Positions 1 to 64,000 of a stretch of DNA of 64,000 bases are shown one piece after another. Both the position numbers and the translations under genes were made by a program. The stretch lies in the IMG/VR virus record IMGVR_UViG_2687453424_000001. One strand, written 5' to 3'. Within the stretch, counting starts at the first letter, position 1, and each line of letters opens with the position of its first letter. A model generated the notes under the pieces. The model was given only the letters and a program-made list of their open reading frames with translations. It had not been told where the DNA came from and made no database searches. This DNA is from a virus (lineage: Duplodnaviria; Heunggongvirae; Uroviricota; Caudoviricetes).

Positions 1-1
1 T

Positions 2-262
2 GCTCTCGGTTCTGGTCAGAAGGCGGATGCGTTACAGAGTTTTAACTCTCTGGCAGACAGCAGTCTGGCAAAAGCTAAATCGGATGCACAGGCGGCGTTT
101 ACGAAACAGCAGGGGCGAGCCTCTCTTGTTGGTGCTGGTCTGGGTGCGGCAGGTGCGTATGCGATGCATAAGGCTGGCGGTAGCGGAGGAAGTGGCGGTG
201 CTAAAACACCTGGCACCGGCGCTAATGCCATTCAGCATCAGGCTCAGAACTGGAGACTGTGA
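2..262 (+). CDS. 3'-terminal fragment of a gene that starts upstream of the window; Gly/Ala-rich hydrophobic C-terminal region; function unknown
   Basis: Frame 2 is open from the first base to TGA at 260-262 (ends ...SLVGAGLGAAGAYAMHKAGGSGGSGGAKTPGTGANAIQHQAQNWRL). Absent from the ORF track only because no start codon lies inside the window. Codon usage matches downstream genes; its stop sits between the GGAG RBS and the start of the next gene. Confidence 0.45.
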   Translation, partial: ALGSGQKADALQSFNSLADSSLAKAKSDAQAAFTKQQGRASLVGAGLGAAGAYAMHKAGGSGGSGGAKTPGTGANAIQHQAQNWRL

Positions 263-264
263 TT

Positions 265-711
265 ATGGAGTACGGTAAATACGAAACACTTGCAAGATAC
301 GGTTATACCGGAGCAGCCCGCCCTCAGGGGGACTGGCAGACATCCGCAGCGCTGACCCGCCAGCAATACGACGACTGGCGCACCAGATATTTACCCCGTG
401 TAGCAAGGCTGGCTGACCTTGGGGAGAACAACAGTCTGATGAATGCACAGCTTGCACGGGTGGGAGGCCTTGCCACTTCCAGTCTCCGTACAGCGCAGAT
501 GGCGCAGGATAACCAGATGGCGAGATACGGGGTAAACCGCCCGGATAATCCCGACAGTAATACGCTGGGGTTACGTAATGCCCTGGCAATTGCTGGCGCG
601 AAAAATGGTATCCGTGAAGCCGAACAGGATCGCCAGATGAATATTCTGACGGGGGCTTCTGCACCGGCAAGACAGAAACTGAGTGTTGGCGGCCAACTGG
701 TGGCAGCGTAA
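265..711 (+). CDS. hypothetical protein, 148 aa (phage/mobile-element-like operon)
   Basis: ATG at 265 preceded by GGAG at 252-255 (9-nt spacer); stop TAA 709-711. The ORF track starts it at GTG 259, but the ATG with proper RBS spacing is preferred. Tightly packed with neighbours on the same strand. Confidence 0.6.
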   Translation: MEYGKYETLARYGYTGAARPQGDWQTSAALTRQQYDDWRTRYLPRVARLADLGENNSLMNAQLARVGGLATSSLRTAQMAQDNQMARYGVNRPDNPDSNTLGLRNALAIAGAKNGIREAEQDRQMNILTGASAPARQKLSVGGQLVAA

Positions 712-720
712 GGGGGCAAT

Positions 721-972
721 ATGGGATACGGTTTACTGGATATTGCAAATCAGTCGCGGCGTGAGGCATTACAGGGAATAAGTGACGCAGACAGACGACG
801 TGAAGAAATTGAGGCTGCGAACAAACAGATGGCGGCGCAACAGAAAGCGCAGAACAAGCAGAATATCGGTACGGGCATTGGTACGGGGGCGGCTATTGGC
901 GCATCCGTTGGTGGTCCTGTTGGTGCTGTTGCTGGAGCAGTAATTGGCGGCATTGCTGGTTCTTTGTTTTAA
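721..972 (+). CDS. small protein (83 aa) with charged N-terminal half and C-terminal glycine-zipper hydrophobic segment; putative membrane protein
   Basis: ATG 721 preceded by AGGGGG; C-terminus GTGIGTGAAIGASVGGPVGAVAGAVIGGIAGSLF is a run of GxxxG/AxxxG repeats typical of glycine-zipper transmembrane helices; stop TAA 970-972 overlaps the RBS of the next gene. Confidence 0.6.
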   Translation: MGYGLLDIANQSRREALQGISDADRRREEIEAANKQMAAQQKAQNKQNIGTGIGTGAAIGASVGGPVGAVAGAVIGGIAGSLF

Positions 973-982
973 GGAGTGGTGA

Positions 983-2248
983 ATGAGCGGATTTGCACAG
1001 GGGTTACTTGCCGGATTCAGCACCGTTGACCAGGCAATGACCCGTCGTAAGGAGCTTGGTCTGCGTGAAGCACAGCTTGCCCGGCAACAGAAAAATAACG
1101 AGCGCGATTTTGAGTTTGCGCAGTCTCAGTTTGAACATAATAAAAACGTTGATCAGCGGAACTTTGATTACAGAGCCAAAGTTGACGACCGTAATTATGC
1201 ACTGAAGGAAAGGGAGTTTAACGCTAACCAGAATTACCGGAATGCGTCACTGGGTATGGAGCAGCAGCGACTCCAGTTGCAGAAATACAACCAGCGACGG
1301 CTTGAGTATAACGATATGATTGCCCATAGCCAGCCACTAATGGAAGCGCTTGGAAAAGCAATTGAGGCTGGCGATCAGGAGGCTGCAACGCGTCTGTTCG
1401 GGCAGCTGCCAAAGGGACATCCATTAATTCTTATGTCAAACGAAGGCTATGCAGCGAAAGCGGGTCAGGCCGTGATCAACCTGCAAAAAATCTTTGGTGA
1501 TAAGCCGGACATGGCGATCGATTCGCTGAATACCCCGGAAAATCTCGATGTGCTTTCCGGCGTGTTTGCCCCGGAACTACAACAGCGTATTGGCATGCCT
1601 GATTCAACCGGGGACAAAACGATAAAAGAGGCCAGGATTGGCAGTATCGTACCAGCGCAGCAGGAAGGGTACGTACTTATTGGCCTTGATCTCACATACA
1701 GCGATGGCTCCACCGCGCATAAACCTGTAACAGAATACGGCAGTGCGCACCCTGATGATCAAACCGTGCTGGCGATACCCGTTGATAAGGCTATCGCTCA
1801 GGTCAGGGATCGCAGCAAATTTGCAGAGATATCGAAAAATTATGGTTATTTTATGCCGAAGCAGCAGGGACTTTCTCTGAAAGAGCTTCAGAAGGGGGCC
1901 AGCAACGTAGCGGCAGACGCGATCAAGAATGGCGGTAATGCTCAGGCTGCGGTGGATGAATATTATGCTGCGACTGGTTCACAACCGCATCAACAGAAAA
2001 TTCAGCAACAAAAACTTCAGCAACAGGTTATCAACTGGGCGGGAGATGATCCTGATAAGCTGTCATTTGCCAGAAATGTAGCGGCCCGTCAGCCTGAAAT
2101 GCTGGAGCCTCAGAATCAGAAATTGCTGGAGAACGGGTATGCGAATTTTCTCCGTATTCAAAAGGCCAGGGGGGAACAGGCCAGAGATGAAAGTGCTTCA
2201 TCTGCATCTCAGTTTATCCGTGGACTGAAACAGAATTACGCCCAGTAA
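983..2248 (+). CDS. hypothetical Q/N/R/E-rich protein (421 aa), predicted largely alpha-helical/coiled-coil
   Basis: ATG 983 with AAGGAG 6 nt upstream; composition rich in Q, N, R, E, K with QQKIQQQKLQQQ-type stretches; stop TAA 2246-2248, followed by an intrinsic terminator. Confidence 0.65.
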   Translation: MSGFAQGLLAGFSTVDQAMTRRKELGLREAQLARQQKNNERDFEFAQSQFEHNKNVDQRNFDYRAKVDDRNYALKEREFNANQNYRNASLGMEQQRLQLQKYNQRRLEYNDMIAHSQPLMEALGKAIEAGDQEAATRLFGQLPKGHPLILMSNEGYAAKAGQAVINLQKIFGDKPDMAIDSLNTPENLDVLSGVFAPELQQRIGMPDSTGDKTIKEARIGSIVPAQQEGYVLIGLDLTYSDGSTAHKPVTEYGSAHPDDQTVLAIPVDKAIAQVRDRSKFAEISKNYGYFMPKQQGLSLKELQKGASNVAADAIKNGGNAQAAVDEYYAATGSQPHQQKIQQQKLQQQVINWAGDDPDKLSFARNVAARQPEMLEPQNQKLLENGYANFLRIQKARGEQARDESASSASQFIRGLKQNYAQ

Positions 2249-2280
2249 TTCACGATATTCCATTAACACCATTTCCTGAT

Positions 2281-2306
2281 GCCCGGCCATTGTGCCGGGT
2301 TTTTTT
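2281..2306 (+). terminator. Rho-independent (intrinsic) terminator between the 421-aa gene and the giant gene
   Basis: Stem CCCGGC (2282-2287) / GCCGGG (2294-2299) with 6-nt loop CATTGT, immediately followed by a run of seven T (2300-2306). Confidence 0.6.
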
Positions 2307-2317
2307 ATGGAGTCTGT

Positions 2318-5300
2318 ATGGCCTATTCAGAGGAACAGCGTCCTGAGGCGCAACTCGGTAACCAGAATCGTAACAGCCTGAACATTCAGCAACCCGGCGA
2401 AACTGACAGCTATGAAGCATTTTTCTCTGATCCGAATCGCTGGAAGGATAACAGTACGTCGTTCAGCCTGGGCGATGTATTGCCAACAATGGGTAAAGGT
2501 TTCGCCCAGTCCGTCCGGGGAACAGGGGAAATGGCCCGTGGACTCGGTGATGCGATGATTCAGAGCCCGGTAAAAACAGGGGTGCGTATTTTAAATGAGT
2601 TCAGCCGTATGGGGCTGCCGGGTGTCGCAACTGTGCAGGATATTTTTGCCGGTGGCAGCAGGGGGGCTGATGAGGTCATCGATACCCTGCCTGATGGCAA
2701 AAACGCGGTTACTGATACTGTCGGTAAAGGTCTGAAGGCAACCGGTAAGGCTGTCAGTGATGGTGCTGAAGCCACTGATGAATGGCTGACCGGTAAGATG
2801 TCGCCGGGTGCTGTTCGTGCGCTGAACACGCCAATGAGTGAAGGCTATGATGATCCCGCAGTCTGGCTGACGAAGGGGATGAATTTTGTCGGTGCCGTTG
2901 CGACAGATGTGTTTGCTGGCGGTGTGGCTAAAAAGGTGGGTGATGTCACACTGCGAAAAATGCTGACCGCCGGGCTGGAGAAAAAATACATCGCGGCAGG
3001 GATGCAGCCGGAAAGAGCCTCGGCACTGGCAGCAGAAGCTGTCGATAAAAAAATGCCGGATTTATTCCAGGCGGGCCTGATCACCCATTCAACAGCCAGT
3101 GCACAGGGGCAGAGTGCAATGGCGGCAGCAGATGCTGTTCTTAATGCGGATTACTCTGAGCTGGCGCAGTCACCGAAATTTCAGCAAATGTTTTTGTCCA
3201 TTGACGCCGACCCGCAGCACGCACAGCTTACTGATCGCCAGAAAATGGACCTGGCAAAAGAGCGTGTGGCTGATGAGGTGCGTGCGCAACTGGCAACCGA
3301 TCCTCAGTTGCTGGCTGTGAATGCCATGGCGGCAAAACTGGGCGATGCTCAGTTGCTTAATCTGGCGATGCGGGGCACAGCGAAGACCGTTAAAAGCGGC
3401 ATTGTCAGAAATGCCACTGCACAGGGGGCGATTAATGCGGCGCAGGGCGGCTATTCACGCTATCAGGAAAACACGGCATTGCGTGAGACCGCCGGAATGG
3501 ATGTATCGCCATGGGAGGGCGTGGCTGACGCAACGATCGAAGGTGCTGCCCTTGGTGCTGCGATGGGGGCTCCATTCGGTGCAGTTGCCGGATATCGTGG
3601 CAGACGTCAGGCCGCAGAAGAAACCGCCATGCGTGATGCTGAAACCGTGCAGCAGGACGACGCAGCCCCGCAACCAGAATCTGTTGATCCGGTGGCGCAG
3701 CATCGTGAATCCATGCAGGGGATGAATCGCGAGCAGCTTCTGGAGCAGTATGCTGATGCGGATATGGCGACAGAGGGTGACGCATCCGCAACTCATCGCC
3801 GGGAAGCCGCCAGCCAGCTGTTGAATGAACTGGACGAACAGGCGAAGCGACAGGCTGTGATGAATGAGCTGAAGGCGAAGCCGCGCCCTGAACTGCTTGA
3901 GGAATACCGAAAACTCAGCCTGAAGGAAGGGCGTACTGATACTGAAGAGCAGCAGTTTCAGGCAATACGTGAAGTCATTCGCCCACAACAGGAAGTGACG
4001 CCTGAAGCACAGTCACAGCCTGAAAATGCGGAGGATGGTAACGGGAGCATTTACCCGACGGTGCGGTTCCGGGACCCGAATGAAGTCCGCATTGAAATTA
4101 ACGGGAATGGTGCGTCCAGACCAGCGGAACGCATTGAAAAGGTGCGCCCGGACAACCGTTATTTCACGGATGAGAAAAGCGCCATGGGGAGTGATGTTTT
4201 CCGTAATGCCGCCGCCACCGGCCTGAAACCGTCCGTAGTGAAGAAAGGCGAGAATCAGTATGCCGTTGAAATGGATAATCCTGCGTTCTCTGAAGATGTG
4301 GCAACGGAAACCATTAACACCCTGGCTGACAGAGAGCGTATTGCTGATGCTGACCCGATGGAGCAGCCCGCGTTCATGCGTGACCCGCGATTCCGTGGTT
4401 TCACGGGGGATGATACGGAGGTACAGGCCCGCCTTGCCCGTGGCAACGCGCCGACGGCGGAGGAGCTTGTACGTTCACAGATGGCTGAAGGTGATGCCGG
4501 TCCGACAGCACAGGAGTTAACTGAGCGTCCGCGTCTGCCCGCCCCCGGCGATATTCATCCCGGACAGGGATATCCGTTACCGGGAGAGGTGGCGCGTACG
4601 CCGGATGAGAATCAGGCCGGACGTGGTGGTCGTTTTACCACAACCGGTGAGGTTAAGGGCCAGAGTTTCCAGAAAGGACGTGCTCCGGCACCGGAAAACG
4701 CCGCTGGTCGCCAGGGGGAAATACTGGAGGGCGAAACAGTTCGTCGTGGTCTGCCGTCACCGGATGCGCAGAACGCGACAGCACCGGTACGTGAAGGGCT
4801 ACCGGCTCCTGACATTGCGCGTAATGTTCGTATGCCTCAGCCTGAATCACTTCCCCGCACTGTACGGGACTCACTGCCTGAGCTTGCACAGCAGGCAGAA
4901 GTACGCCGACAGGCCGGAGGAAATCGTGACATCCCGCAGCCTGAGACAATCGCACCTGAATCTGAAACAACTGTCTCTACTGACAGGGAAGCTACCGTGC
5001 GCGGAGGTGAAGTCAGGGGCAAAAAAATTGAAGACTTTGGCGAGGAAATTAAAGGGGCAGCCAAACACCGTTATGCACAGCTTGCTGAAACACTGGGTAA
5101 AACGCTGGAAGACAGGGATTATGCCACGCAGCCGCTGAGCAAACTGTTCCCGAAACCGGACTACGCAAAACTGGCGAACGAAGGTGCCGATGCTGATACC
5201 CTGGCAATGATAGCGCTGTATCGTAGCGATATTCCGGCGAAGACGAAACACAATACGGCAGGCTGGGGGGAGAGCATAAAAAAAGTACGACACAGTGTAT

Positions 5301-8300
5301 CGGAAATGCTGAACGGAACGGTCAGCGCGAAACGCCTCGCAGAATGGATGGAAGGCAGAATGCCCTCCCGTTACGCGGACACCTGGCAACTGTTACGCAC
5401 TCTGCCACCCTCACAGATGGACAGAGCTTCTGCTTATCGGGTGGTATCGGGTGTGTATCAGGCGGCAGGAGGGAAGCGTTACGATCCGCCACAGAAACTT
5501 TATTCACTGCGCAATAAGGACAATAAGGGGAGTAACCTCTTTTTCTCGGAAAGCAGGGATGAATTACTGGCAAAGGCGAAAGTCTGGTTTGCAGAGCAGG
5601 AGGAAAAATCACAGGCGAAAGGTGATGAAAAAACAGCACCGTCACCGGATGACAAAATCCGCTTTGACGTTTACCGGAATACCCGCAGTGGCGATATTTT
5701 TATCGCTTACGGTAAAAACAAAATGCGGGTGAGAGGTGGCTTTAAGTCAGCCAGTGATGCGCGTAAGTACATTGATTCACATCGTGATGAGCTTGTTCGT
5801 CATGTGAAGGAGATGCGGGAGATTTCGCGTGAGGAGCAGCGCAACGCCACCAACCGCGACCGTACCGGACCAGAACGCCGCAAGGGGAATGTTTCACCGG
5901 AGCAGTTCAGTGATGCGTTTGGTTTCCGTGGTGTGCAGTTTGGTAACTACGTGGAAGGTCCGCGTCGTCAGGCTGATTTGAACCGGGCTTATGACTCGCT
6001 GCATGACCTTGCGGAAGTACTGAATGTACCGACAAAAGCGCTTTCCCTGAACGGTCGTCTTGGCCTGGCATTTGGTGCCCGTGGTAAGGGTAAGGCGGCG
6101 GCACACTATGAGTCAGGTGAGGTGGCAATCAACCTGACAAAAGGTAACGGACCGGGTGCGCTGGCGCACGAATGGTTCCATTCTCTGGATAATTATTTTG
6201 GTCGTTATGACGTTTCCAATGACGGGAAAATTACGTCAGGTGGCGACTTTATGACGGAAGCACAGCGTGTCAGGCGCATATTTAAAGACGGCAGGTATGT
6301 TGATGCTGAATATCCGGTACGTCAGGAGGTTTACGACGCTTTTAAAGGTGTGATTCAGGCCATTAAAAACAGTGACATGCCGCGTCGTTCAGCGCTTCTC
6401 GATGAGGTGCGCTCAAAACCGTACTGGTCAACGGATGTTGAAATGGCGGCACGTGCCTTTGAGCGTTATGTTCAGGATAAGGCGCGTATGGCTGGCGTGG
6501 AGAATGATTATCTGGTCAATATCCGTAAGGCACCTGAGCACAACACAGATAACACCTACGCTTATCCGACGAATGCGGAACTGGATGGCGGTATTCGTGA
6601 GGCATTCGATCACCTGTTCCGCACCCTGAAAACCCGTGAGACGGACAAGGGCGTTGCGTTTTATTCCCGTAAGGGCGTTACCCGCACACCTGAAGGTAAT
6701 CTCATTTCGGATGTTAACCGTAGTGCGGAAGCCAAAGGCAGCCCGGTCCCGCAGGTTGAAGCGGTTGCCCGTGGCGTGATGAGCGGCATTAAGGACAGTG
6801 ACCTGAAGGTCCGTGTGGTGAAGTCACAGAAAGAGGCTGAAGCGCTGGCGGGTGAATTGTTCGATGGTTACGGCAGGGTGCACGCATTCTATCGTCCGGA
6901 TAAACGAGAAATTGTCCTGGTGGCGGATAACATCCCTGACGGGCGGACCGTTCGCGAGAAGCTGCGTCACGAGATCATTCACCATGCCATGGAGCATGTT
7001 GTCACACCAGCGGAATATCAGACGATTATCAAAACCGTGCTGAAAACCCGCGACAGTGATAACGTCACCATCCGTGAAGCCTGGCGTAAGGTTGATGCTT
7101 CCTATGGTAAGGAATCACCGGAAGTACAGGCGGGTGAATTTCTGGCACATATGGCGGAGAAACAGCCGAATAAATTCGTGGCGGCATGGGAGCGTGTTGT
7201 TGCCCTGGTCAAAGGGGTACTGCGTCGTACGGGGTTACTGAAGCCGACGGAACTGAACGATATCAGACTTGTTCGCGAAACTATTCGCACGTTAGGCCTG
7301 CGTGTGCGGGAAGGTTACACGCCGCGTGAGGATGGCGCGGGCGCATCGTCTCAGTACTCCCGTAGTGGTAAACCTGATCCGTTCAAAGTGCCGGAAGGTG
7401 AGGGCGAGCGTTATCGTGATGACCTTGCCAGAATGATGAAGTCGTTACGTTCTGGTGCAATGACTGCAAACATCGGGCGTACGCCGCCGGTATTGCGCCA
7501 CCTTGGCGCACCAGATTTGCCGCTGGTTATCTCCCGCGACACTGTGCGGAAGGCAACCAATGGAGTGAAACATGTGGTGCCAATGGATGTTATCGAGAGA
7601 CTTCCTGAGCTGATGCACGATCCGGATGCAATTTACCGTTCCGCGACAGAAAGAAATGCGGTTGTGATGCTGCTTGATGCCGTGGATAAAAATGGTGATC
7701 CGGTGGTGTCGGCAGTGCACATGAAGGCAACAGATAAACGAATAGAAATTAACAAGGTGGCTTCTGTATATGGAACAAAAGGGGGGATGAACAAAGCTAA
7801 TAGCCTGGATAAAGCAGGTTTGACGCTTTACCGGAAGGAAAAATTAAGCCGCGATAACCCTCAGTACAGTGGGCTTCAATTGCCCAAAGAGGAGCGTTCT
7901 TATCGCGGCTCTGTAGATAAAATACTCTATCCTGAAGATATTCGCAATGGGCCGTATTACTCCCGTACCAGCAGTCTGACACCGGAAGAGACAATTGCAT
8001 CGCGTTTTGTGCGTCAGATGCAGGATAAATTCCAGGTGCTGAAAGCTGTTCAGGAGAACATCCGTAAAACTGGCGGAAAAATAGACGACAGTAACAACGC
8101 TTATATGGCGGAAGAACTCTTCCACGGGAAGGCGGAAAACGACCTGAACGTGATGAAGGAGCGCTACGTTCAGCCACTGGCTAAATTACTGGCGGACTAC
8201 AAAATTGCGCAGGCCGATCTGGATGAGTACCTCTACGCCCGTCACGCGCCGGAACGTAACGCGCATATCGCGAAAATCAACCCGAAAATGCCGGACGGCG

Positions 8301-10702: not shown

Positions 10703-10706
10703 AGAA

Positions 10707-10734
10707 CATGCCCCGTACGGAAGTGCGGGGCATG
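10707..10734 (+). terminator. perfect 9-bp stem / 10-nt loop hairpin directly after the giant gene; possible terminator or RNA processing site (no U-tract)
   Basis: CATGCCCCG (10707-10715), loop TACGGAAGTG, CGGGGCATG (10726-10734), 5 nt after the stop codon; followed by CTTAACGGG rather than a T-run, so not a canonical intrinsic terminator. Confidence 0.3.
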
Positions 10735-11139
10735 CTTAACGGGATGTGTACATAAATGGGTACTAATATGACGATTATTTCGGTGCTTTATGTATTTAAA
10801 TCAATGAGTTAATACTTGTATTCATTATATGTCTCATGTCCCTTTGATGGCTGGAACCCCATGTAGCATGGAGACAAGAAGGATGAGGAGGGTGGATGCC
10901 CCCTGCATGAAGGGGAAACTTGGATTTCTGGAGGTCCTCTGTGTGACAGGGAACAGGTTGGGTTGGCTTTTGTGACTGAGGATCAGAGGAGTGGATAAGA
11001 GGGACATTGTGCTCCCAGTTACAAACTACTTGCTCAGGGAGGGGAAACAGAAAAGGTCTTTTGTCAGCACCTGAGGAAGCCTCCAGGCTAATGAGCTAAT
11101 TACCTTGCAGGTAATTGCCCTGGCAGTCCCTGGCCATGC

Positions 11140-12962: not shown

Positions 12963-13044
12963 TAATGATAAAGGAAATAACAAGGAAGAGAATATAACCG
13001 CTCACCATCCGGTACCTCGCCCCCACCCCGCATTGATCTAGCCC

Positions 13045-27455: not shown

Positions 27456-27459
27456 GAAT

Positions 27460-51649: not shown

Positions 51650-51720
51650 AGTATCACAGTATCACAGTATGTTAGAGATTGGAAGGGACCTCAAAAGATC
51701 ATCTAGTCCAATCCCCCTGC
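51650..51720 (-). mobile_element. CR1-family 3' terminus (variant with TCACAGTA microsatellite)
   Basis: CACAGTATCACAGTATCACAGTATGTTAGAGATTGGAAGGGACCTCAAAAGATCATCTAGTCCAATCCCCCTGCCATGAGG: reverse complement of the CR1 3' hairpin/microsatellite end. Confidence 0.55.
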
Positions 51721-53070: not shown

Positions 53071-53199
53071 TCATATTAAGAAAATATTCCTCATGTTGAG
53101 GATACAGAGACAGTGGCAAACTCTTGCCCAGAGAAGCTTTGGCTGCTCCATTGTGGGCAGTGTTCAAGGGCAGGTTGGAAAGGGAAGGTTGGACAGAGC

Positions 53200-53377
53200 A
53201 GCTTGGAGCAAGCTGCTGTAGTGGAAGATGCCCCTGCCAGTGGCACGGGTTGGAGCTGGATGAGCTTTAAGGTCCCTTCCACCTCAACCCAGTCTGGCAT
53301 TCCATGATTCTCTGCTGTGCCAATGTCGGTCACTCTCTACTTGTCGTAGGTGGCCGTGATGCCCTGTTCCGTTGCCC
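53200..53377 (+). repeat. second copy of the CR1-like 3'-end-plus-flank segment seen at 31615-31816; runs into gap
   Basis: GCAGCTTGGAGCAAGCTGCTGTAGTGGAAGATGCCCCTGCCAGTGGCACGGGTTGGAGCTGGATGAGCTTTAAGGTCCCTTCCACCTCAACCCAGTCTGGCATTCCATGATTCTCTGCTGTGCCAATGTCGGTCACTCT... Confidence 0.5.
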
Positions 53378-56300
53378 NNNNNNNNNNNNNNNNNNNNNNN
53401 NNNNNNNNNNNNNNNNNNNNNNNNNNNNNNNNNNNNNNNNNNNNNNNNNNNNNNNNNNNNNNNNNNNNNNNNNNNNNNNNNNNNNNNNNNNNNNNNNNNN
53501 NNNNNNNNNNNNNNNNNNNNNNNNNNNNNNNNNNNNNNNNNNNNNNNNNNNNNNNNNNNNNNNNNNNNNNNNNNNNNNNNNNNNNNNNNNNNNNNNNNNN
53601 NNNNNNNNNNNNNNNNNNNNNNNNNNNNNNNNNNNNNNNNNNNNNNNNNNNNNNNNNNNNNNNNNNNNNNNNNNNNNNNNNNNNNNNNNNNNNNNNNNNN
53701 NNNNNNNNNNNNNNNNNNNNNNNNNNNNNNNNNNNNNNNNNNNNNNNNNNNNNNNNNNNNNNNNNNNNNNNNNNNNNNNNNNNNNNNNNNNNNNNNNNNN
53801 NNNNNNNNNNNNNNNNNNNNNNNNNNNNNNNNNNNNNNNNNNNNNNNNNNNNNNNNNNNNNNNNNNNNNNNNNNNNNNNNNNNNNNNNNNNNNNNNNNNN
53901 NNNNNNNNNNNNNNNNNNNNNNNNNNNNNNNNNNNNNNNNNNNNNNNNNNNNNNNNNNNNNNNNNNNNNNNNNNNNNNNNNNNNNNNNNNNNNNNNNNNN
54001 NNNNNNNNNNNNNNNNNNNNNNNNNNNNNNNNNNNNNNNNNNNNNNNNNNNNNNNNNNNNNNNNNNNNNNNNNNNNNNNNNNNNNNNNNNNNNNNNNNNN
54101 NNNNNNNNNNNNNNNNNNNNNNNNNNNNNNNNNNNNNNNNNNNNNNNNNNNNNNNNNNNNNNNNNNNNNNNNNNNNNNNNNNNNNNNNNNNNNNNNNNNN
54201 NNNNNNNNNNNNNNNNNNNNNNNNNNNNNNNNNNNNNNNNNNNNNNNNNNNNNNNNNNNNNNNNNNNNNNNNNNNNNNNNNNNNNNNNNNNNNNNNNNNN
54301 NNNNNNNNNNNNNNNNNNNNNNNNNNNNNNNNNNNNNNNNNNNNNNNNNNNNNNNNNNNNNNNNNNNNNNNNNNNNNNNNNNNNNNNNNNNNNNNNNNNN
54401 NNNNNNNNNNNNNNNNNNNNNNNNNNNNNNNNNNNNNNNNNNNNNNNNNNNNNNNNNNNNNNNNNNNNNNNNNNNNNNNNNNNNNNNNNNNNNNNNNNNN
54501 NNNNNNNNNNNNNNNNNNNNNNNNNNNNNNNNNNNNNNNNNNNNNNNNNNNNNNNNNNNNNNNNNNNNNNNNNNNNNNNNNNNNNNNNNNNNNNNNNNNN
54601 NNNNNNNNNNNNNNNNNNNNNNNNNNNNNNNNNNNNNNNNNNNNNNNNNNNNNNNNNNNNNNNNNNNNNNNNNNNNNNNNNNNNNNNNNNNNNNNNNNNN
54701 NNNNNNNNNNNNNNNNNNNNNNNNNNNNNNNNNNNNNNNNNNNNNNNNNNNNNNNNNNNNNNNNNNNNNNNNNNNNNNNNNNNNNNNNNNNNNNNNNNNN
54801 NNNNNNNNNNNNNNNNNNNNNNNNNNNNNNNNNNNNNNNNNNNNNNNNNNNNNNNNNNNNNNNNNNNNNNNNNNNNNNNNNNNNNNNNNNNNNNNNNNNN
54901 NNNNNNNNNNNNNNNNNNNNNNNNNNNNNNNNNNNNNNNNNNNNNNNNNNNNNNNNNNNNNNNNNNNNNNNNNNNNNNNNNNNNNNNNNNNNNNNNNNNN
55001 NNNNNNNNNNNNNNNNNNNNNNNNNNNNNNNNNNNNNNNNNNNNNNNNNNNNNNNNNNNNNNNNNNNNNNNNNNNNNNNNNNNNNNNNNNNNNNNNNNNN
55101 NNNNNNNNNNNNNNNNNNNNNNNNNNNNNNNNNNNNNNNNNNNNNNNNNNNNNNNNNNNNNNNNNNNNNNNNNNNNNNNNNNNNNNNNNNNNNNNNNNNN
55201 NNNNNNNNNNNNNNNNNNNNNNNNNNNNNNNNNNNNNNNNNNNNNNNNNNNNNNNNNNNNNNNNNNNNNNNNNNNNNNNNNNNNNNNNNNNNNNNNNNNN
55301 NNNNNNNNNNNNNNNNNNNNNNNNNNNNNNNNNNNNNNNNNNNNNNNNNNNNNNNNNNNNNNNNNNNNNNNNNNNNNNNNNNNNNNNNNNNNNNNNNNNN
55401 NNNNNNNNNNNNNNNNNNNNNNNNNNNNNNNNNNNNNNNNNNNNNNNNNNNNNNNNNNNNNNNNNNNNNNNNNNNNNNNNNNNNNNNNNNNNNNNNNNNN
55501 NNNNNNNNNNNNNNNNNNNNNNNNNNNNNNNNNNNNNNNNNNNNNNNNNNNNNNNNNNNNNNNNNNNNNNNNNNNNNNNNNNNNNNNNNNNNNNNNNNNN
55601 NNNNNNNNNNNNNNNNNNNNNNNNNNNNNNNNNNNNNNNNNNNNNNNNNNNNNNNNNNNNNNNNNNNNNNNNNNNNNNNNNNNNNNNNNNNNNNNNNNNN
55701 NNNNNNNNNNNNNNNNNNNNNNNNNNNNNNNNNNNNNNNNNNNNNNNNNNNNNNNNNNNNNNNNNNNNNNNNNNNNNNNNNNNNNNNNNNNNNNNNNNNN
55801 NNNNNNNNNNNNNNNNNNNNNNNNNNNNNNNNNNNNNNNNNNNNNNNNNNNNNNNNNNNNNNNNNNNNNNNNNNNNNNNNNNNNNNNNNNNNNNNNNNNN
55901 NNNNNNNNNNNNNNNNNNNNNNNNNNNNNNNNNNNNNNNNNNNNNNNNNNNNNNNNNNNNNNNNNNNNNNNNNNNNNNNNNNNNNNNNNNNNNNNNNNNN
56001 NNNNNNNNNNNNNNNNNNNNNNNNNNNNNNNNNNNNNNNNNNNNNNNNNNNNNNNNNNNNNNNNNNNNNNNNNNNNNNNNNNNNNNNNNNNNNNNNNNNN
56101 NNNNNNNNNNNNNNNNNNNNNNNNNNNNNNNNNNNNNNNNNNNNNNNNNNNNNNNNNNNNNNNNNNNNNNNNNNNNNNNNNNNNNNNNNNNNNNNNNNNN
56201 NNNNNNNNNNNNNNNNNNNNNNNNNNNNNNNNNNNNNNNNNNNNNNNNNNNNNNNNNNNNNNNNNNNNNNNNNNNNNNNNNNNNNNNNNNNNNNNNNNNN

Positions 56301-58728
56301 NNNNNNNNNNNNNNNNNNNNNNNNNNNNNNNNNNNNNNNNNNNNNNNNNNNNNNNNNNNNNNNNNNNNNNNNNNNNNNNNNNNNNNNNNNNNNNNNNNNN
56401 NNNNNNNNNNNNNNNNNNNNNNNNNNNNNNNNNNNNNNNNNNNNNNNNNNNNNNNNNNNNNNNNNNNNNNNNNNNNNNNNNNNNNNNNNNNNNNNNNNNN
56501 NNNNNNNNNNNNNNNNNNNNNNNNNNNNNNNNNNNNNNNNNNNNNNNNNNNNNNNNNNNNNNNNNNNNNNNNNNNNNNNNNNNNNNNNNNNNNNNNNNNN
56601 NNNNNNNNNNNNNNNNNNNNNNNNNNNNNNNNNNNNNNNNNNNNNNNNNNNNNNNNNNNNNNNNNNNNNNNNNNNNNNNNNNNNNNNNNNNNNNNNNNNN
56701 NNNNNNNNNNNNNNNNNNNNNNNNNNNNNNNNNNNNNNNNNNNNNNNNNNNNNNNNNNNNNNNNNNNNNNNNNNNNNNNNNNNNNNNNNNNNNNNNNNNN
56801 NNNNNNNNNNNNNNNNNNNNNNNNNNNNNNNNNNNNNNNNNNNNNNNNNNNNNNNNNNNNNNNNNNNNNNNNNNNNNNNNNNNNNNNNNNNNNNNNNNNN
56901 NNNNNNNNNNNNNNNNNNNNNNNNNNNNNNNNNNNNNNNNNNNNNNNNNNNNNNNNNNNNNNNNNNNNNNNNNNNNNNNNNNNNNNNNNNNNNNNNNNNN
57001 NNNNNNNNNNNNNNNNNNNNNNNNNNNNNNNNNNNNNNNNNNNNNNNNNNNNNNNNNNNNNNNNNNNNNNNNNNNNNNNNNNNNNNNNNNNNNNNNNNNN
57101 NNNNNNNNNNNNNNNNNNNNNNNNNNNNNNNNNNNNNNNNNNNNNNNNNNNNNNNNNNNNNNNNNNNNNNNNNNNNNNNNNNNNNNNNNNNNNNNNNNNN
57201 NNNNNNNNNNNNNNNNNNNNNNNNNNNNNNNNNNNNNNNNNNNNNNNNNNNNNNNNNNNNNNNNNNNNNNNNNNNNNNNNNNNNNNNNNNNNNNNNNNNN
57301 NNNNNNNNNNNNNNNNNNNNNNNNNNNNNNNNNNNNNNNNNNNNNNNNNNNNNNNNNNNNNNNNNNNNNNNNNNNNNNNNNNNNNNNNNNNNNNNNNNNN
57401 NNNNNNNNNNNNNNNNNNNNNNNNNNNNNNNNNNNNNNNNNNNNNNNNNNNNNNNNNNNNNNNNNNNNNNNNNNNNNNNNNNNNNNNNNNNNNNNNNNNN
57501 NNNNNNNNNNNNNNNNNNNNNNNNNNNNNNNNNNNNNNNNNNNNNNNNNNNNNNNNNNNNNNNNNNNNNNNNNNNNNNNNNNNNNNNNNNNNNNNNNNNN
57601 NNNNNNNNNNNNNNNNNNNNNNNNNNNNNNNNNNNNNNNNNNNNNNNNNNNNNNNNNNNNNNNNNNNNNNNNNNNNNNNNNNNNNNNNNNNNNNNNNNNN
57701 NNNNNNNNNNNNNNNNNNNNNNNNNNNNNNNNNNNNNNNNNNNNNNNNNNNNNNNNNNNNNNNNNNNNNNNNNNNNNNNNNNNNNNNNNNNNNNNNNNNN
57801 NNNNNNNNNNNNNNNNNNNNNNNNNNNNNNNNNNNNNNNNNNNNNNNNNNNNNNNNNNNNNNNNNNNNNNNNNNNNNNNNNNNNNNNNNNNNNNNNNNNN
57901 NNNNNNNNNNNNNNNNNNNNNNNNNNNNNNNNNNNNNNNNNNNNNNNNNNNNNNNNNNNNNNNNNNNNNNNNNNNNNNNNNNNNNNNNNNNNNNNNNNNN
58001 NNNNNNNNNNNNNNNNNNNNNNNNNNNNNNNNNNNNNNNNNNNNNNNNNNNNNNNNNNNNNNNNNNNNNNNNNNNNNNNNNNNNNNNNNNNNNNNNNNNN
58101 NNNNNNNNNNNNNNNNNNNNNNNNNNNNNNNNNNNNNNNNNNNNNNNNNNNNNNNNNNNNNNNNNNNNNNNNNNNNNNNNNNNNNNNNNNNNNNNNNNNN
58201 NNNNNNNNNNNNNNNNNNNNNNNNNNNNNNNNNNNNNNNNNNNNNNNNNNNNNNNNNNNNNNNNNNNNNNNNNNNNNNNNNNNNNNNNNNNNNNNNNNNN
58301 NNNNNNNNNNNNNNNNNNNNNNNNNNNNNNNNNNNNNNNNNNNNNNNNNNNNNNNNNNNNNNNNNNNNNNNNNNNNNNNNNNNNNNNNNNNNNNNNNNNN
58401 NNNNNNNNNNNNNNNNNNNNNNNNNNNNNNNNNNNNNNNNNNNNNNNNNNNNNNNNNNNNNNNNNNNNNNNNNNNNNNNNNNNNNNNNNNNNNNNNNNNN
58501 NNNNNNNNNNNNNNNNNNNNNNNNNNNNNNNNNNNNNNNNNNNNNNNNNNNNNNNNNNNNNNNNNNNNNNNNNNNNNNNNNNNNNNNNNNNNNNNNNNNN
58601 NNNNNNNNNNNNNNNNNNNNNNNNNNNNNNNNNNNNNNNNNNNNNNNNNNNNNNNNNNNNNNNNNNNNNNNNNNNNNNNNNNNNNNNNNNNNNNNNNNNN
58701 NNNNNNNNNNNNNNNNNNNNNNNNNNNN
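53378..58728. other. assembly gap (N run)
   Basis: Uninterrupted N. Confidence 1.
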
Positions 58729-58904
58729 GGCAGTGCAAGTGTAAGCAGTGGTCAAATGGGAAAGGACTTTTAGTGGCTCTGGACTAAGCTAGAAAGAGCT
58801 GAGAACTTCCAACTGTATAAATACTCTTCCCATTTTCAGTCATCCGTAGAATACTTTATACGCCAAAGGAAAAATGTCAGCAGTGTTCTACTGGTAAATA
58901 AATA

Positions 58905-59490
58905 ACACAGGCAAAATGATTTTTGATGAGAAAATGAACATGAGCCGGCTGTGCAGTCGCTTGGGGTATTGTGTGCAGTTCTGGTGTCCTCAACATAAAA
59001 AGGACATGGAACTGTTGGAGCAAGTCCAGAGGAGGGCCACAAGGATGATCAGGGGACTGGAGCACCTCCCATATGAAGACAGGCTGAGGAAGTTGGGGCT
59101 GTTCAGCCTGGAGAAGAGAAGGCTGCGTGGAGACCTCAGAGCAGCCTTCCAGTATCTGAAGGGGGCCTTAAGTATGCTGGAGAGGGGCTCTTCACTAGGG
59201 ACTGTAGTGATAGGACAAGGGGTAACATGCTCAAACATAAACAGGGGAAGTTTATATTGGATCTAAGGAAGAAGTTCTTGACTGTAAGGGTGGTGAGGCA
59301 CTGGAAGAGGTTGCCCAGGGAAGCTGTGAATGCTCCATTCCTGGCGGTGTTCAAGGCCGTTTTGGATAGAGCCTTGGGTGACATGGTTTAGTGGGAGGTG
59401 TCCCTGCCCATAGCAGGGGGGTTGGAACTAGATGATCTTAAGGTCCTTTCCAACCCTAACTATTCTATGATTCTACAATTCTAAGGCCAT
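58905..59490 (+). mobile_element. CR1 LINE fragment (ORF2 C-terminal region to 3' terminus), internally deleted
   Basis: Plus-strand peptide KMNMSRL...[58 protein letters not shown]; 3' end GGGGGGTTGGAACTAGATGATCTTAAGGTCCTTTCCAACCCTAACTATTCTATGATTCTACAATTCT at ~59420-59490. Confidence 0.8.
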
Positions 59491-59619
59491 GCCGAGCCTC
59501 TCTTGTGCACCTCAGACTCATCTGAGTCATAAGTACAAGTAGTGAACTTTACAATCAAGTTGGATTTTATCTGATATCCCTTGTGATTATCAGAGCTGGA
59601 CAAAGCACTGCTTCAGAGC

Positions 59620-60055
59620 AAACCTGACTCCCATCCAACCTGGCCTTGAACACTGCCAAGGATGGGGCAGCCACAGCTTCTCTGGGCACTCAGTGCCTGC
59701 ACCTCAGCACCCTCACAGGGAAGTACTTTGTCTTAATATCCAAGATAAATCTTCCTTTTTTCAGCTTAAAGCCATTCCCACTTGTCCTCTCAGTGCACAG
59801 CCTTTTAAAATGCCCCTCTCCAGACTTCCTGTAGGCCCTGTCTAGGTATGAGCAGCTTGCTAAGATGTCTCCTTGGAGCCTTCTCTTCTTCAGGCTTAAA
59901 AACTCCAGCTCTCACAGCTGTCATCATTGGAGATGCACTCCATCCCTTAGCGAATCTCTGTGACTCTTCATAAGCCCATCGTTATAGGACCATGAAACAA
60001 CAGAGGTTGGAAGGGAACCCACAAGGTCTCGAGTCCAACCAATTGGGAACAGGAT
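59620..60055 (-). mobile_element. CR1-like fragment (antisense orientation) extending to the junction with bacterial-type sequence
   Basis: CATCCAACCTGGCCTTGAACACTGCCAAGGATGGGGCAGCCACAGCTTCTCTGGGCACTCAGTGCCTGCACCTCAGCACCCTCACAGGGAAGTACTTTGTCTTAATATC and downstream CCTTCTCTTCTTCAGGCTTAAAAACTCCAGCTCTCACAGC match the antisense CR1 ORF2 C-terminal/3' region. Confidence 0.55.
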
Positions 60056-60069
60056 CAGAGCAGAGTGGC

Positions 60070-60294
60070 TCAGGGCTTGAAACAGTCTGAGTTGGAAATC
60101 TGATGAAAGATCGATTGGCAATCCGGGCAATCATCACGGTAAAAAAACAGAACTTTATCAGAATGATTAGCGAGCGTCACGACCGGTCGCTGTTTTTCCA
60201 CGTGATTCACGTATTGATGACTAGCAAAACCACTAACAGCTAAAACCACCACGATTACCGCTAGGACTTTGCTAACCCGTTTAATTAAGGTCAC
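60070..60294 (-). CDS. thioredoxin-like protein with N-terminal membrane anchor and CPDC (CxxC) motif; 3' end truncated at the junction with avian sequence
   Basis: GTG start overlapping the upstream gene's stop; N-terminal hydrophobic segment VSKVLAVIVVVLAVSGFA followed by VLFFYRDDCPDCQSIF, a thioredoxin-fold active-site context; the ORF ends only ~15 codons after the CxxC, too short for a complete thioredoxin domain. Confidence 0.5.
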   Translation of the reverse strand: MTLIKRVSKVLAVIVVVLAVSGFASHQYVNHVEKQRPVVTLANHSDKVLFFYRDDCPDCQSIFHQISNSDCFKP

Positions 60295-60898
60295 TGGCTT
60301 TAAAGCTACTACCTAAATTTTGTACCGCGGTGATTCGATTCGTGGTGGTATCGAAGGTCACCTGGTAAAGCACCGTCGCCTTTTGCCAGTCGTTATCGCC
60401 ACTCTTGCTTTGGTAACTAACAACCGCCAAGCCTTTCATGTTTCGCCCCTGCTTACTTTGTGTATACATATTCAGTTGGTTTAACTTGGCTGAAACACTA
60501 TTGCTATCGCCATAAGTCCCTTTATTGGAAAAGTATTGCTGATATAACTTGTCGGAAATCAAGTTTTTAACGCCATCTTTACGCTGACCGTAGGTCTTGG
60601 GCTTAAAGTTATTCATGACATCAAAGAACTTGGTGACCACCGTATTAAAGCTAAGTTCAGCCGGACTTTTGTCTTTATTATTTTGGTAGGTCTTATAACT
60701 GTCAATTTGGGTGCTCAATAACTGCTTTTGTTGGTTGGTTTTAGTCAATTGCTGACTAACTTGTCGCTTCTGTTGTTGTAAGCGCGTGATCTGCTGATGC
60801 GCCTGTTTAACTTGGCTATGTTGATAGGCATTCGCCCCTAATGACAGAACTAAGATCAAGCTACCAATCACAACACTTAAAACCATGCTACGCTTCAT
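60281..60898 (-). CDS. hypothetical secreted or membrane-anchored protein (205 aa) with N-terminal signal/anchor and Q-rich coiled-coil region
   Basis: ATG at 60898 (minus) with AAGGAGG ~8 nt upstream, overlapping the stop of the upstream gene; N-terminus MKRSMVLSVVIGSLILVLSLGANA is signal-peptide-like; low-GC Gram-positive codon usage. Confidence 0.6.
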   Translation of the reverse strand: MKRSMVLSVVIGSLILVLSLGANAYQHSQVKQAHQQITRLQQQKRQVSQQLTKTNQQKQLLSTQIDSYKTYQNNKDKSPAELSFNTVVTKFFDVMNNFKPKTYGQRKDGVKNLISDKLYQQYFSNKGTYGDSNSVSAKLNQLNMYTQSKQGRNMKGLAVVSYQSKSGDNDWQKATVLYQVTFDTTTNRITAVQNLGSSFKASDLN

Positions 60899-60912
60899 TT
60901 GTTTGTCCCTCC

Positions 60913-61767
60913 TTACTTCTTGATTGGCCGGGCTAACGTCACATCACCACCACTTAGCAAGCTATAAAAAGCGGTGCCAAAGGTGCTTTCGTTAACCTTG
61001 TCGCCTGTCCCACCTTGCTCAATAATCTTGGTGGCTTTGCCTTGCCATTTGCCTAACAGAATGGCCGTATGGCCGTTGTTTCCCGCGCCGGCGCCTTGAT
61101 TGACAATCACAATATCGCCGGCTTTCGCGTCATTTTCACTGATTTGTTTAAGATATTGATGACTGCCTTTGGCGTCACTGGCCATCGTGCCGGTAAACCA
61201 GCCCATGTTGGCGGGTACCTTGTAACCAGCTTTATTCAGGGCTAACCAGACAAAGCCGGAACAATCCGTGCCACCAGTTTTATTAGGATTTTTTAAATCG
61301 CTACCTAGATCAGGACTGGGGTGCGTTTGCACATAGTAGAAGTCCCCCTTCATGCTTTCCGCGTTTTTGACGATACTACCGCCGGAATAACTCGGGTCAC
61401 TATCACAACCTAGCTCGGTCAGATCGCCGGAACTCGCGTTGTCTAAGGTATTGCCCGCTACTGGATCACTGGCACCAAACACGGAATACCAGTGATCGGC
61501 ATAACCGTATCTTTGGCTTAAATACCATTGCTCCGGGTTTTTGCTCATGCCCTCAAAATCCATCAACCAGTCTTTGGTCGCTTTGTGCACGTCCGTGTAT
61601 TTGAATATCTTCTTATTTGACGCATAGTAACTACTGTTCAATTCTTGGTCGAGATAATCTAATTGCACCCCGAGATTTGTGGCTGGTTTGTTTTCTTTGT
61701 GAGCTAAGTCTTCCAGTTTATCTTTTCGGCCACCTAACCACTGGGCTAATCCCGTGGCACCGGAACT
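60913..61767 (-). CDS. NlpC/P60 (C40) or CHAP-type cysteine peptidase-like cell-wall hydrolase; 5' end lies in the gap
   Basis: Reading frame open from the gap edge (61767) to TAA at 60913-60915; the ORF-track GTG start at 61668 is internal and gives no signal peptide. Contains GGTDCSGFVWLALNKAGYKV (catalytic Cys context typical of NlpC/P60 and CHAP hydrolases) and downstream NNGHTAILLG (candidate catalytic His). Confidence 0.55.
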   Translation of the reverse strand, partial: SSGATGLAQWLGGRKDKLEDLAHKENKPATNLGVQLDYLDQELNSSYYASNKKIFKYTDVHKATKDWLMDFEGMSKNPEQWYLSQRYGYADHWYSVFGASDPVAGNTLDNASSGDLTELGCDSDPSYSGGSIVKNAESMKGDFYYVQTHPSPDLGSDLKNPNKTGGTDCSGFVWLALNKAGYKVPANMGWFTGTMASDAKGSHQYLKQISENDAKAGDIVIVNQGAGAGNNGHTAILLGKWQGKATKIIEQGGTGDKVNESTFGTAFYSLLSGGDVTLARPIKK

Positions 61768-64000
61768 NNNNNNNNNNNNNNNNNNNNNNNNNNNNNNNNN
61801 NNNNNNNNNNNNNNNNNNNNNNNNNNNNNNNNNNNNNNNNNNNNNNNNNNNNNNNNNNNNNNNNNNNNNNNNNNNNNNNNNNNNNNNNNNNNNNNNNNNN
61901 NNNNNNNNNNNNNNNNNNNNNNNNNNNNNNNNNNNNNNNNNNNNNNNNNNNNNNNNNNNNNNNNNNNNNNNNNNNNNNNNNNNNNNNNNNNNNNNNNNNN
62001 NNNNNNNNNNNNNNNNNNNNNNNNNNNNNNNNNNNNNNNNNNNNNNNNNNNNNNNNNNNNNNNNNNNNNNNNNNNNNNNNNNNNNNNNNNNNNNNNNNNN
62101 NNNNNNNNNNNNNNNNNNNNNNNNNNNNNNNNNNNNNNNNNNNNNNNNNNNNNNNNNNNNNNNNNNNNNNNNNNNNNNNNNNNNNNNNNNNNNNNNNNNN
62201 NNNNNNNNNNNNNNNNNNNNNNNNNNNNNNNNNNNNNNNNNNNNNNNNNNNNNNNNNNNNNNNNNNNNNNNNNNNNNNNNNNNNNNNNNNNNNNNNNNNN
62301 NNNNNNNNNNNNNNNNNNNNNNNNNNNNNNNNNNNNNNNNNNNNNNNNNNNNNNNNNNNNNNNNNNNNNNNNNNNNNNNNNNNNNNNNNNNNNNNNNNNN
62401 NNNNNNNNNNNNNNNNNNNNNNNNNNNNNNNNNNNNNNNNNNNNNNNNNNNNNNNNNNNNNNNNNNNNNNNNNNNNNNNNNNNNNNNNNNNNNNNNNNNN
62501 NNNNNNNNNNNNNNNNNNNNNNNNNNNNNNNNNNNNNNNNNNNNNNNNNNNNNNNNNNNNNNNNNNNNNNNNNNNNNNNNNNNNNNNNNNNNNNNNNNNN
62601 NNNNNNNNNNNNNNNNNNNNNNNNNNNNNNNNNNNNNNNNNNNNNNNNNNNNNNNNNNNNNNNNNNNNNNNNNNNNNNNNNNNNNNNNNNNNNNNNNNNN
62701 NNNNNNNNNNNNNNNNNNNNNNNNNNNNNNNNNNNNNNNNNNNNNNNNNNNNNNNNNNNNNNNNNNNNNNNNNNNNNNNNNNNNNNNNNNNNNNNNNNNN
62801 NNNNNNNNNNNNNNNNNNNNNNNNNNNNNNNNNNNNNNNNNNNNNNNNNNNNNNNNNNNNNNNNNNNNNNNNNNNNNNNNNNNNNNNNNNNNNNNNNNNN
62901 NNNNNNNNNNNNNNNNNNNNNNNNNNNNNNNNNNNNNNNNNNNNNNNNNNNNNNNNNNNNNNNNNNNNNNNNNNNNNNNNNNNNNNNNNNNNNNNNNNNN
63001 NNNNNNNNNNNNNNNNNNNNNNNNNNNNNNNNNNNNNNNNNNNNNNNNNNNNNNNNNNNNNNNNNNNNNNNNNNNNNNNNNNNNNNNNNNNNNNNNNNNN
63101 NNNNNNNNNNNNNNNNNNNNNNNNNNNNNNNNNNNNNNNNNNNNNNNNNNNNNNNNNNNNNNNNNNNNNNNNNNNNNNNNNNNNNNNNNNNNNNNNNNNN
63201 NNNNNNNNNNNNNNNNNNNNNNNNNNNNNNNNNNNNNNNNNNNNNNNNNNNNNNNNNNNNNNNNNNNNNNNNNNNNNNNNNNNNNNNNNNNNNNNNNNNN
63301 NNNNNNNNNNNNNNNNNNNNNNNNNNNNNNNNNNNNNNNNNNNNNNNNNNNNNNNNNNNNNNNNNNNNNNNNNNNNNNNNNNNNNNNNNNNNNNNNNNNN
63401 NNNNNNNNNNNNNNNNNNNNNNNNNNNNNNNNNNNNNNNNNNNNNNNNNNNNNNNNNNNNNNNNNNNNNNNNNNNNNNNNNNNNNNNNNNNNNNNNNNNN
63501 NNNNNNNNNNNNNNNNNNNNNNNNNNNNNNNNNNNNNNNNNNNNNNNNNNNNNNNNNNNNNNNNNNNNNNNNNNNNNNNNNNNNNNNNNNNNNNNNNNNN
63601 NNNNNNNNNNNNNNNNNNNNNNNNNNNNNNNNNNNNNNNNNNNNNNNNNNNNNNNNNNNNNNNNNNNNNNNNNNNNNNNNNNNNNNNNNNNNNNNNNNNN
63701 NNNNNNNNNNNNNNNNNNNNNNNNNNNNNNNNNNNNNNNNNNNNNNNNNNNNNNNNNNNNNNNNNNNNNNNNNNNNNNNNNNNNNNNNNNNNNNNNNNNN
63801 NNNNNNNNNNNNNNNNNNNNNNNNNNNNNNNNNNNNNNNNNNNNNNNNNNNNNNNNNNNNNNNNNNNNNNNNNNNNNNNNNNNNNNNNNNNNNNNNNNNN
63901 NNNNNNNNNNNNNNNNNNNNNNNNNNNNNNNNNNNNNNNNNNNNNNNNNNNNNNNNNNNNNNNNNNNNNNNNNNNNNNNNNNNNNNNNNNNNNNNNNNNN
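61768..64000. other. assembly gap (N run) to the end of the window
   Basis: Uninterrupted N. Confidence 1.

Follow-up and report, generated by a model that had tools for sequence, protein, structure and literature searches.

Bird and Lactobacillaceae Plasmid DNA Beside the Φ24B Prophage in an Escherichia coli MC1061 Record: Almost Certainly an Artefact of Assembly or Contamination

Introduction

The DNA analysed here, below called the window, is a stretch of 64,000 nucleotides (nt) held in IMG/VR as the virus record IMGVR_UViG_2687453424_000001. Within it, the right arm of the Shiga toxin (Stx) phage Φ24B is followed by bird DNA and then by a piece of a Lactobacillaceae conjugative plasmid. 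The question raised by this locus is whether the mosaic records a transfer of genes between a phage, a vertebrate and a bacterium, or whether it arose in the making of the sequence record. It is almost certain that some artefact of assembly or contamination in an E. coli record is responsible. No gene transfer is involved, and the mosaic is not a biological feature. The route was probably the joining of contaminant scaffolds, end to end, with the prophage scaffold in a hand-edited draft of the lysogen MC1061(Φ24B).

Three Blocks and Two Junctions

The window contains three blocks, at positions 1–10830, 10831–60095 and 60096–61767, which are distinct both in composition and in taxonomy. The blocks and their boundaries are as follows.

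1–10808, plus strand: right arm of phage Φ24B (vB_EcoP_24B, Stx2-converting), corresponding to HM208303.1 46870–57677
10809–10830, plus strand: 22-nt continuation of the phage into its P arm, TTAATACTTGTATTCATTATAT, corresponding to HM208303.1 positions 1–22
10830/10831: junction 1, phage to avian DNA, placed by alignment to an O157 prophage flank and to the Φ24B record
10831–60095, no strand assigned: avian nuclear DNA, apparently closest to parrots, in a gap-rich scaffold (CpG content, retroelements, best matches in birds only)
60095/60096: junction 2, avian to plasmid DNA, inside a thioredoxin-family gene of a transfer operon, placed by alignment to plasmid pLBN-3
60096–61767, minus strand: piece of a Lactobacillaceae conjugative plasmid (MOBQ/MPF_T), from plasmid identity, annotation and Pfam
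61768–64000: start of a 5,316-N scaffold gap, from the N runs of the source record

The ratio of observed to expected CpG is 1.06 in the phage block, 0.24 in the avian block and 1.00 in the plasmid block. In 300-nt windows, the median for the avian block is 0.25, against 1.03 for the bacterial blocks, which is CpG depletion of the vertebrate type. The change is abrupt on both sides: the ratio falls from about 1.0 to 0.07 across the 500-nt windows starting at 10501 and 10751, and it returns from 0.07 to 0.99 across those starting at 59479 and 59979, the recovery lying at approximately 60.0–60.2 kb. The fraction of non-N bases that belong to stop-free frames with 150 codons or more follows the same division (0.96, 0.26 and 0.89, in the order of the blocks). 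Strand-symmetrised tetranucleotide profiles correlate at 0.73 between the two halves of the phage block and at 0.90 between the halves of the avian block; from one block to another the correlation never exceeds 0.29. Both switches of composition occur inside N-free sequence. A scan of the whole window with Rfam at the gathering threshold returned nothing.

An earlier, sequence-only reading of the window had described two abrupt changes of block type, and the CpG profile, the stop-free frames and the tetranucleotide correlation bear it out. The ranges that it gave for the switches, about 10.74–10.87 kb and 60.05–60.11 kb, contain the boundaries 10830/10831 and 60095/60096 found by alignment. 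Its three labels also hold and can be made more specific: the enterobacterial phage-like part is Stx phage Φ24B, the avian part is avian, and the Lactobacillales-type part is a conjugative plasmid of Lactobacillaceae. Sliding-window composition and per-block sequence matching, which it had named as checks, were carried out, and both separate the three blocks. That reading made no mention of the N runs. There are eight of them, amounting to 30,626 of the 64,000 positions, and the phage block has none: all fall within the avian and plasmid blocks or after them. In the avian block, N makes up 57.6% of the positions.

Source of the Window

In an exact look-up, the 205-amino-acid (aa) protein encoded in the plasmid block was found on one public contig only, LN877770.1 (assembly GCA_001405275.1; 5,027,063 bp). 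Window positions 50281–64000 were compared directly with the reverse complement within LN877770.1 3069343–3089960, and there were 0 mismatches over 13,720 positions, N runs included. If this register is extended (record position 3140241 − w for window position w), the window as a whole corresponds to LN877770.1 3076241–3140240 on the reverse strand; the direct comparison covers window positions 50281–64000. As the N runs are identical in LN877770.1, the Ns represent gaps of the deposited record; masking added at a later stage is ruled out by the same identity. The possibility that separate GenBank records had been spliced together to make the window was also considered, since the 10,808-nt phage match stops at the very last base of HM208303.1, and it is ruled out by the 22 nt of additional phage sequence and by the match to one public record.

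LN877770.1 has been cited as E. coli MC1061 (PMC10203433). The sequencing of MC1061(Φ24B) was described by Veses-Garcia et al. (2015), who sequenced an 8-kb mate-pair library on 454 GS-FLX Titanium, assembled the reads with Newbler, annotated the result with RAST and reported an assembly of “5,027,118 bp in 15 scaffolds” in which HM208303.1 replaced the prophage at 3129539–3186979 (PMC4651098). The end of the phage sequence in the window maps to LN877770.1 position 3129433, about 0.1 kb from the published prophage coordinate. LN877770.1 fits the MC1061(Φ24B) lysogen assembly of that study. It is exactly neither of the versions described there (PMC4651098), being offset by 106 nt at the prophage start and by 55 nt in total length. 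The raw 454 reads of the assembly are held under BioProject PRJEB9491.

The Phage Block

A megablast search against 50,697 phage records gave one match of 100.0% identity to the phage block, HM208303.1, and this match reaches the final base of that record. Direct comparison of the two sequences showed 0 mismatches and no indels over 10,808 nt. Identity falls to 97.5% for the runner-up among 186 phage records and reaches at most 98.7% in 5,426 complete E. coli genomes. Being identical to the type record HM208303.1 and collinear with it, the block belongs to the Stx-converting phage Φ24B (Traversvirus tv24B). The exact 2807-aa sequence of the vb_24B_48 product is otherwise on record only in HM208303.1, so it is the form specific to Φ24B; a 421-aa protein encoded next to it is widespread in E. 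coli genomes. Beyond the last base of HM208303.1, the phage sequence of the window crosses the circular junction of that record and continues for 22 nt (10809–10830).

The Phage/Bird Junction and the att Core

The 24-bp crossover core of Φ24B, TTATATCCATTTAACTAAGAGGAC, is the identity shared by attP and the argW region of E. coli K-12 (NC_000913.3 2466309–2466332, equal to HM208303.1 17–40). This core is also the first 24 nt of the K-12 gene argW for tRNA-Arg(CCU), so that integration of Φ24B takes place at the 5′ end of argW and leaves the gene restored. The HM208303.1 record is permuted, in that it does not open with the core but has 16 nt ahead of it.

In the window, the core begins at position 10825 and is broken off at junction 1 after 6 nt (10825–10830, TTATAT). 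In the free phage (attP) and in an E. coli O157 lysogen (attR, by yfdC and mlaA), the sequence runs through CATTATAT and then CCATTTAACTAAGAGGAC, and it is at this point that the window departs. Absent at the junction are the other 18 nt of the core and, after them, the yfdC-side flank of E. coli, together CCATTTAACTAAGAGGACAATGCGGCATGAG. Tested as an attR of Φ24B, the window has neither the full 24-bp core nor the host B′ arm of the argW/yfdC side. The bird DNA next to the junction shows no visible resemblance to the core, and none of the 5,426 complete E. coli genomes matches positions 10831–15245. A search with a 33-mer across junction 1 found no match in collections of genomes, viruses and metagenome contigs, collections to which LN877770.1 does not belong.

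The Avian Block

The avian block comprises eight contigs of 0.6–5.4 kb (10831–15245, 18064–18676, 20413–22653, 27076–31816, 36644–37596, 41959–43061, 47939–53377 and 58729–60095), separated by seven N gaps of 1.7–5.4 kb each. Two protein-coding remnants in it were compared with database proteins.

20437–22651, plus strand: remnant of open reading frame (ORF) 2 of a CR1-type long interspersed nuclear element (LINE), Exo_endo_phos_2 followed by RVT_1 (Pfam), running into an N gap
37144–37554, minus strand: fragment of an OR14-type olfactory receptor (Pfam 7tm_4, E = 1.6e-11), cut by the N gap at 37597

A 209-aa reverse transcriptase piece of the LINE remnant is 81–87% identical, at 90–100% coverage, to reverse transcriptase proteins of Strigops, Amazona collaria and Melopsittacus. 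All of its named matches are from birds, and the highest identities are with parrots. Among the matches listed for the olfactory receptor fragment, 120 of 120 are bird proteins named “olfactory receptor 14J1-like” or “14C36-like”, with 89% identity to Pezoporus flaviventris and 88% to Strigops. An avian origin of the block is well supported by these comparisons. The assignment to a parrot is a reasonable lean, as judged from multi-copy families with 81–89% protein identity. One lead is the budgerigar (Melopsittacus undulatus), a species under 454 sequencing with long paired-end libraries in about 2010.

The Plasmid Block and the Bird/Plasmid Junction

The plasmid block is 97.5% identical over 1,672 nt to pLBN-3 of Levilactobacillus brevis (NZ_CP050544.1) and about 96% identical to plasmids of Lactiplantibacillus plantarum. 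It matches 172 plasmids, 168 of which are conjugative by typing, and the genera listed for them are Lactobacillaceae; the block is thus a member of this plasmid group. Junction 2 cuts a plasmid gene in mid-frame, with no Ns at the join. The chimeric ORF of 74 aa that crosses it has no exact match on record.

Integration Signatures

The 40-nt flanks of either junction have no k-mer of 6 nt or longer in common, meaning that no direct repeat, microhomology or target-site duplication is present. No complete att site or integrase was found at either junction, and neither target-site duplications nor terminal or att-like repeats flank the insert. The insert also lacks one host genome on its two sides, since the bird block lies between a phage and a Lactobacillaceae plasmid. 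A search at and near the junctions for Illumina adaptor, 454 linker, loxP and vector-primer sequences found none, and untrimmed adaptors or mate-pair linkers at the joins were rejected on this ground.

Origin of the Mosaic

The reading that we consider probable, namely that contaminant scaffolds were joined end to end with the prophage scaffold, would work as follows. The 454 8-kb mate-pair library would have carried low-abundance DNA of a parrot-like bird and of a Lactobacillaceae strain with a conjugative plasmid, and this foreign DNA may have entered at the library or sequencing-run stage. Newbler would have assembled the contaminants into short contigs, which mate pairs strung into gap-rich scaffolds; linking of this kind would give N gaps of 1.7–5.4 kb, all of them shorter than the 8-kb insert. 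The fragmentation of the bird block into eight small contigs with 57.6% N, against the gap-free phage block, is the pattern expected from a much lower read depth. A record of 5,027,063 bp is too long to be one of 15 scaffolds totalling 5,027,118 bp and must contain nearly all of them, from which we infer that they were joined. About 15 scaffolds would have been concatenated without spacers into one pseudo-molecule of 5.03 Mb, in which the junctions are former scaffold ends. Such end-to-end joining would leave the scaffolds of the plasmid, the bird and the prophage right end directly adjacent, with two N-free switches of taxon within 50 kb. The pasting in of HM208303.1 would explain why the perfect identity stops exactly at the last base of that record. 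The break of the prophage contig in the att core might be due to disagreement there between attR reads and the attP reads of excised phage, and CCATTTAACTAAGAGGACAATGCGGCATGAG is predicted to lie at another scaffold end of LN877770.1.

Several points speak against this account. Concatenated ends are not separated by the evidence from chimeric Newbler contigs or from false mate-pair links with a gap of zero. The difference between the published prophage start (3129539) and the mapped one (3129433) is unexplained, as is the difference between the published length (5,027,118) and that of the record (5,027,063). Concatenation in order of size would not put small contaminant scaffolds at 3.08–3.13 Mb of 5.03 Mb. 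Besides, the break lies 6 nt into the core, whereas attR and attP reads diverge at its end.

Some of these points lead to an alternative that is an artefact of the same kind, in which the joins arose at the contig level, during assembly or scaffolding, because 454 reads were chimeric or because different molecules had been circularised together in the mate-pair library. Chimeric pairs do occur in mate-pair libraries, both junctions are N-free, and the contaminant scaffolds occupy a middle position in the record instead of its end, all of which suits this alternative. It nevertheless seems unlikely, though by no means far-fetched: coincidence is an improbable source of two unrelated chimeric joins within 50 kb, no 454 paired-end linker or loxP remnant lies at or near the junctions, and a record about as long as the sum of 15 scaffolds makes concatenation somewhere necessary. 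The sequence-only reading proposed another artefact, a bird genome scaffold whose ends had acquired contaminating contigs of gut bacteria and phages. The avian block is indeed the largest in the window, E. coli phages and lactobacilli occur in bird guts, and the N-gapped layout resembles that of a vertebrate mate-pair scaffold. However, the window lies in LN877770.1, whose citation as E. coli MC1061 is joined by a size and prophage coordinates that match MC1061(Φ24B), and the phage is base-for-base Φ24B and not a wild relative. The direction of contamination proposed in that reading is therefore wrong, and host and contaminant change places: the phage belongs to the strain as its prophage, and what contaminates the record is the DNA of the bird and of Lactobacillus. 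We regard a bird scaffold as very improbable. A “gut-associated” source is unnecessary, as Φ24B in MC1061 is a laboratory construct.

The remaining alternative is a genuine recombinant, in which bird or Lactobacillus DNA was physically joined to the end of the Φ24B prophage, by the action of Int at the core or through bird DNA cloned in the host. Junction 1 does fall within the 24-bp crossover core, MC1061 serves as a cloning host, and the Φ24B integrase has been described as promiscuous, with secondary sites (PMC7581858). Against this, the far side of the bird DNA is a Lactobacillus plasmid gene in mid-frame, and not E. coli or vector sequence; no vector or adaptor sequence was found; the bird side offers no core-like sequence; a second att-like site and a duplication are both lacking; and the bird block is fragmented, with 58% gaps, unlike the adjoining single-copy E. 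coli and phage DNA. A molecule of this kind is extremely improbable. For junction 1 taken by itself, we find it scarcely credible that integrase-mediated or illegitimate recombination, in culture or with DNA cloned in MC1061, joined the prophage end to foreign eukaryotic DNA; if it did, a promiscuous Stx-phage integrase would have captured vertebrate DNA. In preferring an artefact to horizontal transfer, the sequence-only reading was right. The lack of a target-site duplication, microhomology, complete att site or integrase agrees with it, and so do the plasmid gene cut in mid-frame and the contrast between a bird block of small contigs, 58% gaps, and a phage block without gaps. End-to-end joining of contaminant and prophage scaffolds is still the explanation that we prefer.

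Gene Content of the Blocks

The phage block carries the following genes, all on the plus strand and all after the annotation of HM208303.1.

1–262, plus strand: vb_24B_44, 3′ part
265–711, plus strand: vb_24B_45
721–972, plus strand: vb_24B_46, “bacteriocin”
983–2248, plus strand: vb_24B_47
2279–10702, plus strand: vb_24B_48, polyvalent protein of 2807 aa with LPD5, LPD1, MuF_C and LPD38 (annotation and Pfam)

The gene vb_24B_48 is a single ORF of 8.4 kb at the right end of the Stx phage, and its product is 14 residues longer than the 2793-aa version of O157 prophages. ORFs of at least 100 aa lie inside it or antisense to it, at 3321–3725, 4605–5138, 5322–5645 (minus strand), 7797–8177 (minus strand) and 8528–8899 (minus strand). 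Three of these ORFs are annotated as hypothetical in HM208303.1 (vb_24B_50c, 51c and 52c). The overlapping ORFs look like over-annotation within a long GC-skewed gene.

In addition to the two remnants given above, the avian block contains the following features.

11273–12589, minus strand: decayed reverse transcriptase of a CR1-type LINE, in frameshifted RVT_1 pieces (Pfam E = 2e-11 and 9e-12; translations)
12941–13300, minus strand: putative remnant of an endogenous retrovirus integrase (Pfam rve, E = 1.8e-5, below the gathering score)
29874–30218, plus strand: weak remnant resembling the transmembrane subunit of a retroviral envelope (GP41, E = 6e-4; TLV_coat, E = 6e-3; both below gathering)
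48999–49923, no strand assigned: C-rich minisatellite with a 42-bp unit, about 22 copies and 66% matches (Tandem Repeats Finder)
52682–53065, minus strand: 3′ (C-terminal) end of a CR1-type LINE, with a translation like the other CR1 C-termini of the window
58898–59388, plus strand: another 3′ (C-terminal) end of a CR1-type LINE, from its translation and a motif in common with the copy at 22025–22651

We take the LINE copies to belong to the CR1 clade on the basis of the names of their matches and of a motif known from this group. The copy at 52682–53065 matched no Pfam family. The GC skew is −0.45 at 49001–50000. On the reverse strand of the minisatellite there is a long stop-free frame rich in G, W and V (48820–49524), which was called as a 208-aa ORF. 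Bird-type CR1 reverse transcriptase fragments are also found on short contigs of metagenome assemblies in ENA and JGI, where they are presumably host DNA of bird-associated samples.

The plasmid block carries three genes, all of them on the minus strand.

60096–60294, minus strand: thioredoxin-family gene, truncated at about residue 66 of 122 (annotation, Pfam)
60281–60898, minus strand: hypothetical gene of 205 aa (annotation)
60913–61767, minus strand: NlpC/P60 “phage tail tip lysozyme” gene, of which the C-terminal part is present up to the N gap (annotation, Pfam)

Past the window, LN877770.1 (3069343–3079342) continues with the 5,316-N gap, 3.3 kb of plasmid DNA and another N run. The 3.3 kb of plasmid DNA contains a VirB4/TraG-like gene of 683 aa.

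Consequences for the Use of the Record

A cited E. coli MC1061 record holds DNA of a bird and of a Lactobacillus plasmid, which in the window alone come to 23 kb of sequence and 31 kb of gaps. Automated scans may read such a record as a transfer from phage to vertebrate or from vertebrate to bacterium. Gene calls on it place a Lactobacillus plasmid protein under an E. coli assembly in protein collections, and the metagenome contigs mentioned above are another route by which bird CR1 sequences enter “microbial” protein collections. Other findings from the window should be read block by block, and both junctions should be ignored as biology. The value of the present observation is confined to the flagging of a contaminated public record, that is, to database hygiene.

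Comparison with Known Systems

The Φ24B prophage at its primary site argW, between yfdC and intS, has the same right arm (10,808 of 10,808 nt), followed by the P arm. In a true attR, such as that of O157 lysogens, the yfdC-side flank comes after the whole 24-bp core, whereas the window has 6 nt of the core and then bird DNA. The avian block resembles the regions of avian genomes that are rich in OR14 (gamma-c type) receptors and CR1 elements, with the same kind of OR14J1/14C36-like fragment, CR1 copies, endogenous retrovirus remnants, a minisatellite and CpG depletion. It does not differ from them biologically; it is DNA in the wrong record. Plasmid pLBN-3 has the same gene order as the plasmid block (thioredoxin-family gene, hypothetical gene, NlpC/P60 lysozyme and, past the window, a VirB4-like gene), but the record holds mere fragments of it, truncated at the junction and by N gaps.

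As a whole, the window is most like the cross-contaminated draft genomes that have been concatenated, in which the same abrupt change of taxon, gap-rich foreign blocks of low coverage, truncated genes and no integration signature are seen and the main organism is likewise a laboratory strain. The usual case is bacterial DNA in a eukaryotic assembly, whereas LN877770.1 is a bacterial record that contains bird DNA and the plasmid of a second bacterium. Unlike the usual contaminated drafts, it also includes a block that was pasted by hand from another GenBank entry.

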